Assembly (NCBI RefSeq): GCF_003790525.1
Contig: NZ_CP033635.1
Origin: Escherichia coli
GTDB taxonomy: Bacteria; Pseudomonadota; Gammaproteobacteria; Enterobacterales; Enterobacteriaceae
Reading direction: 5' to 3' (one strand)
Length of the DNA: 64,000 nucleotides
Part shown: positions 9,001 to 30,000 of the stretch, one piece after another
How the letters are laid out: each line of letters opens with the position of its first letter
How positions within the stretch are numbered: position 1 is the stretch's first letter
Made by a program: the position numbers

Positions 9001-12000
9001 AATAAATTCCCACGAATTTGGGGCGCAGGACGCCTTGAGAACGGCTTATCTCATTTTCGCAGTCACTATTTAGTCATCGTCCAAACAGAGAAACAGGCCG
9101 CCGAAGCGGCCATTTATTATTTATATTTTTTCCAGCGCGGTGAGTATTTTCTCCGGTGTGAAATGCCATTCGCGTAACCAGATGCCGCATGCATCGTGAA
9201 TTGCGATAGCAATCGCCGGAGCTGCGCCATTTACACCGATTTCCGAGATCGATTTCGCCCCGAACGGGCCGACTTTATCGTCGCTCGGCACCAGCACAGC
9301 GCGGAAATCACGCGGAATGTCACCAATTTTCGGTGCGCCGTAACTGCGTAAATCACGCGTTAACGGGTGACCTTCGGCGTCATAAATGATCTCTTCGCTC
9401 ATACTGTGGCCGATAGCTCGCAGAGTGGCACCGTAGATTTGTCCCAACGCTAACTCTGGATTGACCGGTGTACCGCAATCCAGCAAGGCGTAGAATTTAT
9501 CCAGGCGGATTTCACCCGTACGCGTGTTGACGGCAACTTCAGCAAAGTTTGCGCCATACGGGAAGGCGAAATCAGGCGTGATATAACTGCCAGTTCCCAC
9601 CAGTGAACCAAAGCCGGTGCCGGTTTCGCCTTTATGGGCTATCTCTCCGAAACTAACTTCGCCTTTCTTGCCGCGAACGACGCCCGGCGTTGCTAGTTGA
9701 ACATCTGCCACTGGCTCACCCAACATTTGCGCGCCGTGGAACAGGATTTTCTCCCGCAGATTTTCCGCTGCCAAACGCGCAGCGTTACCCGAGAAGCAAG
9801 TACCGGACGAGGCATATGCGCCTTTATCAAACAGTGCATGATCGGTATCACCAGAGATAACATGCACGTCCTGCGGTGGGCAGTGCAGCACTTCTGCTGC
9901 CAGTTTCGTCACCACAGTATCCAAACCAGTACCAATATCCGCACCGCCAGAATGAACGATAAAGGTACCGTCTGATTCCAGTTTGATCATGCAGTTAGCC
10001 TGATCGATATCCGGGATACCCGATTTCTGCATGATAATGGCGACGCCACGACCGATGTGCCAGTCACCGTTTTGTGGTTTTGGTGAAGACCATTGGATCA
10101 TCTCGCGACCCTGACGCAGGATCTCTTCCAGTGCGCAGCTGGCGGCGGAAGGAACGGAGGTCGGCGCTTTACCTTCACCGATTGCACCGAGAATTTTCAG
10201 CTCTTGCCCTTCGTGTACCCGGTTACGTTCGATAATTTCCAGTTGGTCGATCTGTAACTGTTCAGCCAGTTCCGCTAATGCCATGGTGATAGCGAAGTTA
10301 CCTTTCGGTGCGCCATAACCCTGATAAGCACCATTTGGGCAAATGTTGCTGTAGTAGGTGGTGACCTGGAAATCGACGTTATCGCACGGATATAACGGCA
10401 GCGACAGCGCCGGTCCGTTACACGGTACGGTGAGTGAGTGGTTGCCGTAAGGGCCAGTGTTGGCGCGGAAATCCATCTTCACTGCCGTCAGGCGACCATC
10501 TTTTTTCGCTCCCAGTTTGACGGTGACTTTCGCGACGTGACGAGAGGTGTTAGCAATAAACTCTTCTTCACGGGTGTAGCGGAACAGTACCGGACGCCCG
10601 GTCACGCAGGTTGCCCAGGCGCACACTTCTTCCAGCAGGATGTCCTGTTTGGAACCAAAACCGCCGCCAACTCGCTCTTTAATGACATGAACTTTATGTT
10701 GTTTCATGCCCACGAGGCGCGCGACCTGGCGGCGTAAGTGCCATGGTACCTGGGTGGAGGCGTGGATAACCAGACGATCGCCGTCCATACGGGTAAAGCA
10801 GATATGTGTTTCAGTCGGGCACTGCTGCGCCTGCGTTGAGTTATAGGTTCGCTCAATGATCACATCGGCATCGGCAAAGCCTTTGTCCATATCGCCAATA
10901 TGACCATGGATACTGGCAGCGATATTTTTGCGTGGGCGAGAACCGATCGGGAAGTTGATGATCATATGCTCGCCGCGCTGGGCTGCATGGCTGTTATCAT
11001 CTTCCAGAGTATCTGGCGCACCAGCAACATACACCACCGGTTCATCGTGCACCACAGGCGCATCTTCCGCCATTGCCTCGTCAATCGACATTACTGGCTT
11101 AAGCACCTCATATTCAACGTCGATGAGCTTCAATGCTTCGAGCGCAATGTCTTCACTTTCAGCGACGACCGCAGCAACACGATCGCCGACGTGACGCATT
11201 TTCTTGCCGAACATACGGCGGTCAAGCGGTGACGGTTCCGGTGCGCTCTGACCACCCGGGGTATAGTAGATATCTGGGCAATTCAGGTGAGTAATAACGT
11301 GAACGACGCCCGGTAAGGCTTCAGCTTTGCTGACATCCAGATGAGTAATCAGTGCGTGAGCGTGTGGGCTACGTAACATTTTAATGACGCAGGCGTCAGC
11401 CGTTACGCGGTCTTCAACATAGCAGGGTTTCGCCTGCACCATTTTCGCGGCATCAGTTTTAGGATAATGCTTGCCAATGACTTCAAGGTCGTCACGGAAA
11501 GTCGGAGCGATATCAATGGTGGCCTGCGGATTATTTTTACGTGCAACCGCCAGTTCAATGACCTGATAGTATTGCTGCCAGCCAGCATCGCGGCTAAACA
11601 GACCTGAGAGCGCGTCGTCGATCTCTTCGCGGGTAGGTGCGGCGATGCGATCGAGAAGATCGGTGATAATCAGAGCCGCAGCTGGATCGTTATAACCAGA
11701 CTGCACCACGCCAACATCAACCATGGCCTGTTGAACCAGACTTAACTCGTTCCATTTGCCCAGAGATTCTGCGGTACGAATATCTGCCTTCTCTAACTGT
11801 GCGGCAATAAGCAAGGACGCGTTAACGATATTACCGTTAAAGATAATTGCGTCAGAACCGGCAAACCCAAAACCATCATCACTGTTGCGTACAGAGTGCA
11901 TTCCCATGTTAAACAACAGCTTTTGCACGTTTTCGCCTGGATTAACGGTTAGCTCCTGAGGCGCGCCATTTAAAGTAAAGTGGATGATCATACGGCTTCC

Positions 12001-27000: not shown

Positions 27001-30000
27001 ATTTGACGGATAATGTGTGGGGTTGATCACAAATTGATGCCAGCTTCCGGTTGTTTGTAAAATACGAAAACGTTTGGCTTTTTTTATCGCGTTATTTATT
27101 TGCTGCTAAGTATCAGAAATAAGATAAAGGGACAGGCGATCTCTCTTCAGTTTGATAAACTCACCGCCGTAATTCTCATATTGATATAGAAATGTGATAT
27201 CTCTTCCATAATTTCATTAGAAAGTGATAAAAATCTTATGTTTTTATCAAAGCCAATTTCGCCTGAGTTAATATCATCATGATCTATGAACCATCAACGT
27301 CTTCAATGATCGACTTTTAAGTAAGTCTGGAAGGTAAAGCTATGGAGCTTGCTACTACGCAGTCAGTATTGATGCAAATTCAACCGACAATTCAGCGTTT
27401 TGCCAGAATGCTTGCCAGCGTTTTGCAGCTTGAGGTTGAGATCGTTGATGAAAACTTGTGTCGCGTCGCCGGAACGGGCGCGTATGGGAAGTTTCTTGGT
27501 CGCCAGTTGAGCGGCAACTCACGCCTGCTCCGCCACGTCCTGGAAACGAAAACTGAAAAAGTTGTGACACAGTCTCGCTTCGATCCCCTTTGTGAAGGTT
27601 GCGATAGTAAAGAAAATTGCCGCGAAAAAGCATTTCTGGGTACGCCTGTCATTTTACAGGATCGTTGTGTTGGAGTGATAAGTTTGATTGCCGTTACCCA
27701 CGAGCAACAAGAGCATATTAGTGATAATTTACGCGAATTTTCTGATTACGTTCGCCATATATCCACCATTTTTGTTTCTAAACTTCTGGAGGATCAGGGA
27801 CCAGGAGATAACATCAGTAAAATATTCGCGACCATGATCGATAATATGGATCAGGGCGTGTTAGTGGTTGATGCTGATAATCGTGTTCAATTTGTTAATC
27901 AGACAGCTTTAAAAACACTCGGTGTTGTACAAAATAATATTATTGGAAAACCAGTTCGTTTCAGACCATTAACATTTGAGAGTAATTTTACCCATGGTCA
28001 TATGCAACATATTGTTTCGTGGGATGATAAAAGTGAATTAATCATTGGTCAGTTGCATAACATCCAGGGCCGACAACTATTTTTAATGGCGTTTCACCAA
28101 TCGCATACCAGTTTTTCTGTAGCAAATGCACCTGATGAACCGCATATTGAACAATTGGTTGGCGAGTGCCGTGTTATGCGGCAATTAAAACGACTCATTA
28201 GCCGTATTGCACCCAGCCCATCCAGCGTTATGGTGGTTGGTGAAAGCGGCACAGGTAAAGAAGTCGTCGCCCGTGCAATCCATAAGTTGAGCGGAAGACG
28301 GAATAAACCCTTTATTGCTATCAACTGTGCCGCGATTCCGGAACAGCTTCTGGAGAGCGAACTGTTCGGTTATGTTAAAGGCGCATTTACTGGCGCTTCT
28401 GCCAACGGTAAAACAGGGTTGATTCAGGCGGCGAATACGGGCACGCTGTTTCTCGATGAAATTGGTGATATGCCATTAATGTTGCAGGCTAAATTACTGC
28501 GCGCTATTGAGGCGCGTGAAATTCTGCCGATTGGTGCCAGTAGCCCAATACAAGTCGACATCCGCATCATTTCTGCAACTAATCAGAATTTGGCCCAGTT
28601 CATTGCTGAAGGTAAATTCCGCGAAGATCTCTTCTACCGACTTAATGTTATCCCGATAACTCTGCCACCGCTGCGTGAACGTCAGGAAGATATTGAATTA
28701 CTGGTGCATTACTTTTTACATCTGCATACCCGTCGTCTGGGATCGGTTTATCCTGGCATTGCTCCTGATGTCGTCGAAATATTGCGTAAGCATCGTTGGC
28801 CCGGAAACCTGCGCGAGTTAAGCAATTTGATGGAATATCTGGTTAACGTGGTTCCTTCAGGTGAAGTTATCGACAGCACGCTATTGCCACCAAATCTGCT
28901 GAATAATGGCACAACGGAGCAAAGTGATGTAACAGAGGTCAGTGAGGCGCACCTGTCACTTGATGATGCGGGCGGCACGGCGCTGGAGGAGATGGAAAAG
29001 CAAATGATCCGCGAGGCGCTTTCACGTCATAACAGCAAGAAGGAAGTTGCTGATGAACTGGGCATCGGCATTGCTACGCTCTATCGCAAGATTAAGAAAT
29101 ATGAGTTGTTAAACACATAACCTCAGTGAATCCGGCCTGAATTCAGGCCGGATATCCTTTTACTTCGTTTTCTCGCAATCCAGAACTGTATTTACAATCA
29201 TCTGATACCCCGTGCAGCGACAAAGATTTCCCGCCAGTCCGCGACGAATTTCCGTAATGGTTAATGGCTTCTCGCGTGGTTTCGCCAGCATTGCCGTGGT
29301 AGCCATAATCAGGCCAGGCGTACAAAACCCGCACTGCACTGCGCCGGATTTCGCATAAGCCTGCTGAACATGAGAAAGTTTTCCGCCTTTCGCTTCACCT
29401 TCCAGCGTGCGGATCTCTTTTCCTTCAGCCCAGGCGGCAAGGTATAAGCAACTGTCTATTGCTGTGCCGTCGACCAGCACCGTACAGGCACCACATTCAC
29501 CCACGCAGCACCCTTGTTTGACACTTAGCAGTCCTTGTTCGCGGAGTAATTCCGAGAGCGGCGTGCCTGGTGCGGCGTGAAGCTGAAAAGGCATCCCGTT
29601 AATGGTGCATTCGATGGTAATTGTTTCGCTGTGATTCATTGCAATTTTCCCCCCGCCGCGGCGACGGCTTCGCTAATCACTTTTTTGGTCATCGTCTGGA
29701 TGAGATACAGACGAAACTCTTTACTGGCCCGCCATGAAGAACGCGGGGCGACATCTTGCAGGACAGATTCGCTGATAGCTTCCAGCGTTTGCAGGTTTAA
29801 TGGCGCATTTTGTGCAGTCTGTTCGGCATGTTGGCAGCGAATCGGCGTTGGCGCGGCAACACCAAATGCCAGGCGTAATTCGCTGAAATTGCCGTTATCC
29901 AGTCGGCAATGTGCGGCACAGCCAATCGTTGAAATATCCATTGCGTCGCGCATGGCATATTTAAAATGCGCGCTGCCCGCGTGTTCTTTCGGCTGGGGCG

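Follow-up and report, generated by a model that had tools for sequence, protein, structure and literature searches.

What is encoded by the 18.2-kb interval at positions 9121-27341 of a stretch of the Escherichia coli chromosome, and how are its genes brought under common control? The stretch, referred to here as the window, comprises 64,000 nucleotides of contig NZ_CP033635.1 (NCBI RefSeq assembly GCF_003790525.1). A preliminary description, made from the sequence, had called the interval a functionally unresolved hydroxylase/carbamoyl cluster, with substrates and intermediates largely unassigned, and had guessed that it forms a complete, energy-yielding route for the degradation of a purine or related N-heterocycle. 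The interval is almost certainly the E. coli cluster for reductive (2,8-dioxopurine, or "yanthine") anaerobic degradation of uric acid, together with genes for cofactor maturation. This system is already known; it is the same as that characterized in E. coli K-12 and Nissle, and its enzymes were assigned biochemically between 2023 and 2025. The guess of an energy-yielding route has since been confirmed experimentally (PMC12507026; bioRxiv 10.1101/2025.04.24.650524), and "functionally unresolved" is out of date, as substrates and intermediates have been assigned for every catabolic enzyme of the interval.

The interval contains 12 intact genes: xdhD, ygfM, ssnA, ygfK, mocA, yqeC, yqeB, yqeA/arcC, hyuA, ygeY, ygeX/dpaL, and ygeW. 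In our own translations, which agree with the RefSeq annotation (an identical record), the coding sequences of the cluster are free of internal stops and have proper starts and stops, and every protein of the interval exceeds by a wide margin the curated cutoff of the NCBIfam family to which it belongs. The urate reductase (2,8-dioxopurine dehydrogenase) is represented by xdhD (9121-11991, minus strand; TIGR03313, 2118 bits, cutoff 1102), which encodes the Mo/Fe-S subunit, and ygfM (11988-12767, minus strand; TIGR03312, 490 bits, cutoff 241.5), which encodes the FAD subunit. The amidohydrolase gene ssnA (12818-14146, minus strand; TIGR03314, 739 bits, cutoff 455.5; activity in PMC12507026) is separated by 2 bp from ygfK (14149-17247, minus strand; TIGR03315, 1781 bits, cutoff 835), which encodes an NAD(P)H-dependent Fe-S flavoenzyme (DOPOR). 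Three cofactor genes follow: mocA (17569-18147, minus strand; TIGR03310, 216 bits, cutoff 186), for a molybdenum cofactor cytidylyltransferase (MCD cofactor), and yqeC (18251-19021, plus strand; TIGR03172, 238 bits, cutoff 73) and yqeB (19069-20694, plus strand; TIGR03309, 416 bits, cutoff 220), both markers of the maturation of selenium-dependent molybdenum hydroxylases (SDMH). The remaining genes, all on the minus strand, encode the carbamate kinase YqeA/ArcC (20735-21667; TIGR00746, 386 bits), the hydantoinase HyuA (21715-23100; TIGR02033, 675 bits, above cutoff), the M20 amidase YgeY (23153-24364; TIGR03526, above cutoff), the pyridoxal phosphate-dependent diaminopropionate ammonia-lyase YgeX/DpaL (24422-25618; TIGR03528, above cutoff), and the knotted carbamoyltransferase YgeW (25676-26863; NF005538, 825 bits, and also TIGR03316, above cutoff). 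Thus, the full enzyme set of the 2,8-dioxopurine urate cluster is present (XdhD with YgfM, YgfK next to SsnA, and HyuA/YgeW/YgeY/YgeX/carbamate kinase), and the SDMH trait markers yqeB and yqeC adjoin a molybdenum hydroxylase here. Nothing in the sequence of the window contradicts the assignment.

The proteins of the cluster are 96.9-100% identical to their K-12 counterparts, most of them 99-100%, with YqeC (96.9%) and SsnA (97.7%) the lowest. XdhD (99.7%) and YgfM (99.2%) are very close to the K-12 proteins that have been assayed, and Glu606, the residue highlighted by Li et al., is present in the XdhD of the window (PMC12507026). HyuA, YgeW, YgeY, YgeX, and the carbamate kinase are 99.8-100% identical to K-12, YgeW being 100% identical. 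The 18.2-kb interval matches the chromosome of E. coli strain GN03551 at 100%, and the block is found at a coverage of at least 80% in 5153 of 5426 complete E. coli genomes. Furthermore, the order ygeV/ygeW-X-Y-hyuA-yqeA is unchanged in every locus with both genes among the 41 YgeV-orthologue loci of other Enterobacterales. Given this distribution and the order kept in other Enterobacterales, the grouping of the genes is not due to chance.

The steps of the pathway are taken from the literature, mostly from K-12 enzymes that are 97.7-100% identical to those of the window. Li et al. (2025) purified E. coli XdhD with co-purifying YgfM and demonstrated that urate and NADH are converted to 2,8-dioxopurine ("yanthine"), that YgfK and SsnA turn 2,8-dioxopurine into ureidomethyl-hydantoin, that HyuA yields 2,3-diureidopropionate, that YgeW with phosphate gives a mono-ureido product, and that YgeY and YgeX lead to pyruvate; XdhABC acts upstream, where xanthine is oxidized to urate (PMC12507026). 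A second study arrived independently at the same route, through reconstitution and through isotope tracing in Clostridium sporogenes, and also showed that E. coli YgeW and YqeA make ATP from diureidopropionate and that the clostridial first enzyme requires SelD (Liu et al., 2025; bioRxiv 10.1101/2025.04.24.650524, which is Nat Microbiol 2025;10:2291 according to PMC12990295). Both 2025 studies are reviewed in a commentary that calls the pathway highly specific for urate (PMC12990295). In addition, E. coli hyuA, ygeW, ygeX, and ygeY mutants are blocked in the conversion of urate to acetate (bioRxiv 10.1101/2022.07.24.501321). The mutant metabolomics on urate under anaerobic, selenium- and molybdenum-replete conditions and the YgeW assays that the preliminary description had proposed have therefore essentially been done, and the absence of a purine phenotype, which it held would count against its guess, is answered by these mutants.

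By their near-identity to the assayed proteins, the enzymes of this strain would act in the following sequence. Urate would enter the cell through UacT, or form from guanine, hypoxanthine, and xanthine through GuaD and XdhABC. The Mo-cofactor/Fe-S/FAD enzyme XdhD-YgfM would then remove the 6-oxo group of urate at the expense of NADH to give 2,8-dioxopurine, which the Fe-S flavoenzyme YgfK would reduce with NAD(P)H. Hydrolysis of the dearomatized six-membered ring by SsnA would produce ureidomethyl-hydantoin, and HyuA would open the five-membered hydantoin ring to give 2,3-diureidopropionate. One ureido group would be removed by YgeW through phosphorolysis, releasing carbamoyl phosphate from which the carbamate kinase YqeA would form ATP, CO2, and NH3; the second would be hydrolyzed by YgeY to leave 2,3-diaminopropionate, which YgeX would convert to pyruvate and ammonia. 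On its family assignment, MocA would supply the cytidine dinucleotide form of the molybdenum cofactor, and YqeB and YqeC would mark SDMH maturation.

Several points qualify this assignment, or parts of it. The assays come from other strains, and their extension to this one is inferred from near-identity. The two groups disagree on the ureido group that YgeW removes, which is the 3-ureido group according to Liu et al. (bioRxiv 10.1101/2025.04.24.650524) and the 2-ureido group, with albizziin as product, according to Li et al.; moreover, the HyuA that Li et al. assayed was the orthologue from C. difficile and not the E. coli protein (PMC12507026). Dependence on selenium was demonstrated for the C. 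sporogenes enzyme and not for E. coli XdhD (bioRxiv 10.1101/2025.04.24.650524), Johnstone and Self state that E. coli probably makes no selenium-dependent hydroxylases, and Li et al. name selenium only within their reference list (PMC12507026). The role of yqeB and yqeC as SDMH maturation genes is supported by genetics in Clostridia, and a requirement for selenium or SelD has been shown for the growth of C. difficile. Within the 64-kb window, the part of the genome covered for this gene, selD was not found. Lastly, yqeA, mocA, yqeB, and yqeC are missing from the published list of the YgeV iModulon (PMC12133099). The only direct genetics of YgeV is second-hand: expression of ygfT is reportedly reduced in a ygeV mutant, a result that others attribute to Iwadate and Kato 2019.

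Could the cluster nevertheless act on something other than urate? That its substrates and intermediates are still largely unassigned, and may belong to another N-heterocycle, was the position of the preliminary description, and the annotation lends it some color: RefSeq uses names such as "putative aminohydrolase SsnA," "putative selenate reductase subunit YgfK," and "YgeY family selenium metabolism-linked hydrolase," the K-12 record labels most of these genes "putative," and Liu et al. term the structures of two intermediates, UA-3 and UA-4, provisional. However, two independent groups reconstituted the conversion of urate to pyruvate in vitro with these enzymes and matched intermediates to standards, YgfK picked 2,8-dioxopurine from a mixture of three xanthine isomers (bioRxiv 10.1101/2025.04.24.650524), and the specificity for urate noted in the commentary points the same way, so that this possibility is very improbable and, for the main flux, is already refuted. 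An older annotation, which we consider just as improbable, makes YgfK/YgfM/XdhD a selenate reductase and the cluster a system for the reduction of selenium oxyanions instead of purine catabolism. It survives in the NCBIfam names of TIGR03313, TIGR03312, and TIGR03315 (such as "Se_sel_red_Mo" and "putative selenate reductase subunit YgfK") and would suit genes that adjoin the selenium-trait markers yqeB and yqeC, but selenate is neither needed for nor enhances the activity of YgfK, an enzyme reducing 2,8-dioxopurine with NADPH (bioRxiv 10.1101/2025.04.24.650524), XdhD-YgfM reduces urate (PMC12507026), and cofactor maturation accounts for the selenium connection better than selenate reduction does. 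The selenate proposal was dropped, as selenate is irrelevant to YgfK and XdhD-YgfM acts on urate.

Least credible of all is that the ygeW-yqeA block is a general operon for the salvage of hydantoins, dihydropyrimidines, or D-amino acids, in which HyuA would serve as a D-phenylhydantoinase and YgeY would be a carbamoylase-like hydrolase, and which would have no tie to the neighboring molybdenum enzymes. HyuA does belong to the D-hydantoinase/dihydropyrimidinase equivalog (TIGR02033) and is annotated accordingly, and the chemistry parallels the reductive pyrimidine pathway (PMC12507026). Yet HyuA cleaves ureidomethyl-hydantoin and 5-ureido-dihydrouracil, both of them products of YgfK and SsnA (PMC12507026), expression of the block goes together with that of the ygfK-xdhD and xdhABC operons (PMC10602906; PMC12133099), with which it has sigma-54 promoters and an upstream dyad in common, and salvage is contradicted by the hyuA, ygeW, ygeX, and ygeY mutants, in which urate-to-acetate conversion is blocked. 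This reading was likewise dropped. The RefSeq names of ygfK (14149-17247, "putative selenate reductase subunit YgfK") and hyuA (21715-23100, "D-phenylhydantoinase") are outdated, having been superseded by the 2025 biochemistry.

The reductive urate pathway resembles, and departs from, several known systems. Compared with the K-12/Nissle pathway (PMC12507026; Liu et al., 2023, 2025), the genes, their order, the sigma-54 sites, and Glu606 of XdhD are the same (96.9-100% identity), and the differences amount to strain polymorphism, namely the lower identities of YqeC and SsnA, one base in the ygfT sigma-54 motif, and a yqeB/yqeA spacer of 40 bp instead of 220 bp. The urate clusters of C. sporogenes and C. 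difficile (XdhAC/DOPDH; UacX and UacY variants) follow the same logic with orthologous SsnA, HyuA, YgeY, and YgeX, are likewise associated with YqeB/YqeC, and are predicted to be controlled by a sigma-54 activator, DioR. On the other hand, NADH serves the E. coli enzyme, which includes the FAD subunit YgfM, whereas NAD(P)H is not used by clostridial DOPDH, and only for the clostridial versions has a dependence on selenium been demonstrated. In C. difficile, a PydA-like UacX takes the place of YgfK, and a hydrolase, UacY, takes the place of YgeW and YqeA, so that no ATP is made at that step. Reductive pyrimidine degradation (PydA/PydB/PydC) is similar in that an NAD(P)H/Fe-S flavoenzyme dearomatizes a uracil-like ring, an amidohydrolase opens it, and the ureido group is removed, but its substrates differ and other families serve several of the steps, and the cluster is not a member of it. 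With the arginine deiminase pathway it shares a carbamoyltransferase run phosphorolytically and a carbamate kinase that makes ATP. YgeW, however, belongs to a knotted family separate from ornithine carbamoyltransferase (it scores 825 bits with its own model but only 133 bits with that for ornithine carbamoyltransferase, where the cutoff is 281), and its substrate is 2,3-diureidopropionate where that of the arginine deiminase pathway is citrulline. The clostridial "xanthinase" (Rabinowitz) pathway is also anaerobic, selenium-dependent, and started by a molybdenum hydroxylase acting on urate, but it proceeds via xanthine and direct hydrolytic ring cleavage to glycine, relies on downstream genes that are unrelated, and is seldom encountered among gut bacteria.

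With the catabolic route assigned, there is the matter of its control. Chromatin immunoprecipitation sequencing (ChIP-seq) in K-12 placed sigma-54 sites upstream of xdhA, ygeW, ygfK, and ygfT, and an intragenic sigma-54 promoter within yqeC, which drives yqeB, was validated by mutation (Bonocora et al., 2015; PMC4591121). All five published motifs were found in the window, four of them exactly and one with a single mismatch (PMC4591121). The exact matches are the promoter of ygfK-ssnA-ygfM-xdhD (GTGGTGCGATTGTTGCT, 17320-17336, minus strand; site OS31), the intragenic yqeC promoter (18652-18668, plus strand; site IS34), the promoter of ygeW (CTGGCACACTTATTGTT, 26957-26973, minus strand; site OS30), and that of xdhA (CTGGCGTAAATCTTGCC, 32878-32894, minus strand; site OS29); the site upstream of ygfT (2313-2329, plus strand) has one mismatch to the K-12 ChIP-seq motif. 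A blind scan of the window for TGGCAC-N5-TTGC with one mismatch gave 4 matches where 5.4 were expected, which is not above chance, and support for the sigma-54 sites therefore rests on position and on the published ChIP data. An initial guess at the ygfK promoter, TGGCAAGAGTGGTGC, was dropped because it lay 9 bp off the ChIP-defined motif. We also predict a sigma-54 promoter for uacT (TGGCACTCCACGAGCA, GG-N10-GC, 2009-2024, minus strand), 68 nt ahead of the ATG; in Pluralibacter gergoviae (L030), an element of this type stands 74 nt ahead of uacT. The main text of Bonocora et al. (2015) makes no mention of the uacT candidate (PMC4591121).

Co-expression agrees with these sites. The YgeV iModulon was defined by Lamoureux et al. 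(PMC10602906), and its genes are xdhABC, ygeWXY, hyuA, ygfK, ssnA, ygfM, xdhD, ygfT, and uacT (PMC12133099). Co-regulation, on which the preliminary description had made its guess depend, is thus answered for the pathway by the sigma-54 ChIP sites (PMC4591121) and the YgeV iModulon (PMC10602906). In this strain, expression would proceed from the sigma-54 promoters before xdhA, ygeW, ygfK, and ygfT, and from that inside yqeC for yqeB, with the divergently encoded YgeV as the presumed activator of the cluster promoters. Between the upstream dyads described below and the ygeW promoter lies a CRP-like site, TGTGA-N6-CCACA (27016-27031), which is a conserved island in the alignment of ygeW upstream regions. 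It agrees with the mention by Li et al. of glucose repression and of a native Crp site in the ygeV/ygeW spacer (PMC12507026), and it would confer glucose repression here. For the Clostridiales, a prediction from 2019 placed the orthologous genes under a sigma-54 activator, DioR, and sigma-54 control of this pathway therefore spans phyla.

YgeV itself (27342-29120, plus strand; assigned by Pfam and motifs), just outside the interval, has a GAF-like and PAS sensor region followed by AAA+ and HTH_8 domains (PF00158, E = 2e-70; HTH_8, E = 6e-13). It carries the GAFTGA motif at residues 347-352 and Walker A and B motifs (GESGTGK, 300-306; LFLDE, 369-373), and so has the sigma-54 interaction domain and the DNA-binding helix-turn-helix of enhancer-binding proteins. 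The preliminary description was right in seeing a dedicated sigma-54 activator here, and right about the selenium and molybdenum cofactor maturation genes.

A search for an element shared by the regions upstream of four sigma-54 promoters returned a 13-bp dyad, TATCA-N3-TGA(T/G)A; the same pattern with an N4 spacer has no relevant match in the window. In the divergent uacT/ygfT spacer, the dyad TCTCATATTGATA (2135-2147) is a candidate YgeV upstream activating site, and the 14-mer around it is identical to the site upstream of ygeW. A perfect dyad, TATCATTATGATA (17505-17517), lies some 170 bp upstream of the sigma-54 site of ygfK and is likewise a candidate. Upstream of ygeW, an array of TATCA half-sites (27145-27199), a candidate YgeV operator, includes the main dyad TATCAATATGAGA (27174-27186, minus-strand reading) and a partial dyad (27145-27157). 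Two further dyads, 21 bp apart (32992-33004 and 33013-33025), stand upstream of the sigma-54 site of xdhA, at a distance of about 100-130 bp. Overall, the dyads fall 100-220 bp upstream of the four promoters, and as activator sites they are predicted from sequence. The window holds 12 dyads against 3.8 expected, but the consensus was derived from the same regions; since this makes the enrichment partly circular, a cross-species footprint was relied on instead. Another copy of the dyad, a perfect 10/10 match (TATCAAGATGATA, 25330-25342), occurs inside the coding sequence of ygeX, where it could be a chance occurrence or an internal regulatory site.

The footprint sample consisted of 41 YgeV-orthologue loci of other Enterobacterales, with sensor domains 62-96% identical to that of E. 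coli, and the expected rate, about 3% per region, was obtained from dinucleotide shuffles. At this background, a dyad matching at least 9 of 10 positions is found upstream of ygeW in 38 of 39 other loci, and in 35 of those 38 it lies 213-218 bp from the -24 element. Upstream of xdhA, a dyad pair (each matching at least 8 of 10 positions) is present about 110-130 bp upstream in 19/19 other loci, and upstream of ygfK the dyad is present in 7/7 other genera, about 161 bp from the -24 element. Because the loci share ancestry, these counts are not independent events, and it is the contrast with the surrounding sequence that carries the argument. In an alignment of 40 ygeW upstream regions (the window and 39 loci), the mean column identity is 0.42, and the conserved islands are the dyad, the second partial dyad, the CRP-like site, and the sigma-54 element, the last being near-invariant in the 40 sequences.

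We judge it an even chance that YgeV unites the purine-to-pyruvate locus as one sigma-54 regulon through dyad arrays upstream of xdhA, ygeW, ygfK, and ygfT/uacT, a regulon that would include the previously unlisted uacT promoter. Somewhat less probable, though still weighty, is that the dyads are not YgeV sites at all, and are bound by another factor, for instance a Fur-like or nucleoid-associated protein, or are kept for DNA bending. The dyad is AT-rich and its half-site centers are 8 bp apart, which is shorter than is typical for helix-turn-helix dimers, and the ygfK site contains ATAATGATAA, which we take to overlap the Fur-box consensus. Also, neither a dyad nor a sigma-54-like element was found in K-12 upstream of ybiY, a member of the YgeV iModulon, or of aegA, a ygfT paralogue, two loci linked to the YgeV iModulon and urate use that were not used to derive the consensus; both are therefore probably linked to YgeV indirectly. 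What favors YgeV over another factor is that the dyad stands upstream of all four regulon sigma-54 promoters at distances typical of enhancer sites, that its retention in other genera is far above the shuffled rate (38/39 for ygeW, 19/19 for the xdhA pairs, and 7/7 for ygfK), that the fixed spacing at ygeW is kept within otherwise poorly conserved spacers, and that YgeV is the sole sigma-54 activator encoded at the locus.

A second prediction concerns the signal that YgeV perceives. Four cysteines in its sensor are invariant, C84-x2-C87-x5-C93 and C109, and the C-x2-C-x5-C motif is retained in a Firmicutes homologue at 27% identity. The spacing presumably matches that of the Fe-S ligands of FNR, which is a lead and not a test. 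It is conceivable, though doubtful, that the GAF-like domain would hold a metal or Fe-S center on C84-x2-C87-x5-C93...C109. Distant homologues of the sensor were also sought, but most of the sequences retrieved were fragments or frameshifted, and only two were informative. The AlphaFold model of the sensor is mediocre (pLDDT 64.8, with the cysteine loop at low confidence), and a fold search with it gave generic GAF/PAS matches; nothing was therefore learned from it on the ligand of YgeV or its cysteines. The best specific structural match to the N-terminal model is E. coli DhaR(N) (PDB 4LRX), and DhaR shares the GAF-PAS-AAA+-HTH layout, but identity is 15-16% with TM-scores of about 0.3, and DhaR senses its partner proteins DhaK/DhaL, whereas YgeV has the invariant C-x2-C-x5-C...C motif. 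In the literature searched, no published YgeV operator or YgeV cysteine motif was found. These regulatory additions (the dyad, the uacT promoter, and the cysteine motif) are the only new material presented here; they are minor, and they are predictions.

The genes that border the interval supply its substrates or otherwise serve the pathway. The urate:H+ symporter gene uacT (492-1940, minus strand; RefSeq), an intact open reading frame outside the interval, belongs to the YgeV iModulon (PMC12133099) and would provide substrate. It is followed by ygfT-ygfS (2376-4783, plus strand; NF009451, 1495 bits, cutoff 1154), for an Fe-S/flavin oxidoreductase and a ferredoxin-like protein. This pair has reportedly been linked to formate-dependent urate use, a finding cited at second hand from Iwadate and Kato 2019, and its role is a proposed one. 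Three feeder genes come next on the minus strand in the RefSeq annotation, 99.5-100% identical to K-12: ghxQ (4819-6186), for a guanine/hypoxanthine transporter; guaD, for guanine deaminase, between ghxQ and xanQ within 4819-8956; and xanQ (7556-8956), for a xanthine symporter. Beyond ygeV, on the far side of the interval, xdhCBA (29160-32822, minus strand; RefSeq) encodes the xanthine dehydrogenase that converts hypoxanthine and xanthine to urate, for which a delta-xdhA phenotype has been reported (PMC12507026). The xdhA gene (30525-32822) is 765 a.a. long in the RefSeq record versus 752 a.a. in K-12, because a different start codon is called.

The inventory of the preliminary description held up well. 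All the genes it named are present and intact at the coordinates it gave, according to the RefSeq annotation, our translations, and the NCBIfam scores, although it passed over mocA, the molybdenum cofactor cytidylyltransferase in the middle of the cluster. Of the purine permeases said to flank the cluster, xanQ, ghxQ, and uacT do exist, but on one flank only, and the activator and xdhABC, which it counted with the cluster, are adjacent but lie outside 9121-27341.

Some features of the locus may bear on transcript processing. The convergent genes yqeB and yqeA are separated by 40 bp here (20695-20734) versus 220 bp in K-12 (L044, 16395-16614), which means that K-12 has some 180 bp extra at this point, possibly a REP-like element. 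A GC-rich hairpin with T tracts on both strands (20703-20728) lies between the two genes and is likely a bidirectional terminator. Strong GC-rich, terminator-like hairpins also occur on the minus strand directly after ygeW (25648-25669) and after ygeY (23116-23135), inside the ygeW-X-Y-hyuA-yqeA block that is treated as one co-expressed unit; these may be partial terminators, or may stabilize the RNA, and so adjust the stoichiometry among the gene products.

Elsewhere in the window, a largely intact ETT2-type type III secretion island (36577-57551), with sctC, sctN, sctV-like, sctRSTU, prgH/eprH, ygeH, and ygeG genes, lies beside glyU (tRNA-Gly, 34069-34142), a position at which K-12 has remnants and IS2 only. 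The island is in early decay, in that the gene for SpaN/EivJ is broken into two pieces (43979-44209, 44507-44854) and that for YscQ/HrcQ carries a frameshift (44814-45801). A frameshifted pseudogene of glycoside hydrolase family 15 (34376-35985) and an open reading frame for a small GhoT/OrtT-family toxin (36052-36231) are found between the tRNA-Gly gene and ETT2, and an IS3-family transposase (58837-60065), itself with a programmed frameshift, interrupts yqeK (58698-60459).

The urate cluster lets E. coli and many gut anaerobes consume urate secreted by the host, with a yield of ATP and pyruvate, and in doing so affects host urate levels; it is already being engineered into probiotics against hyperuricemia and gout (PMC12507026). 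This significance is established in the literature, and therefore flagging the locus adds nothing new to it. For that engineering, Li et al. replaced the native promoter region without knowing its elements (PMC12507026). If the sensor of YgeV does hold an Fe-S or metal center, oxygen or redox state would gate this anaerobic pathway beside urate induction and CRP, and a defined YgeV operator and signal would help to engineer inducible or de-repressed uricolytic strains.

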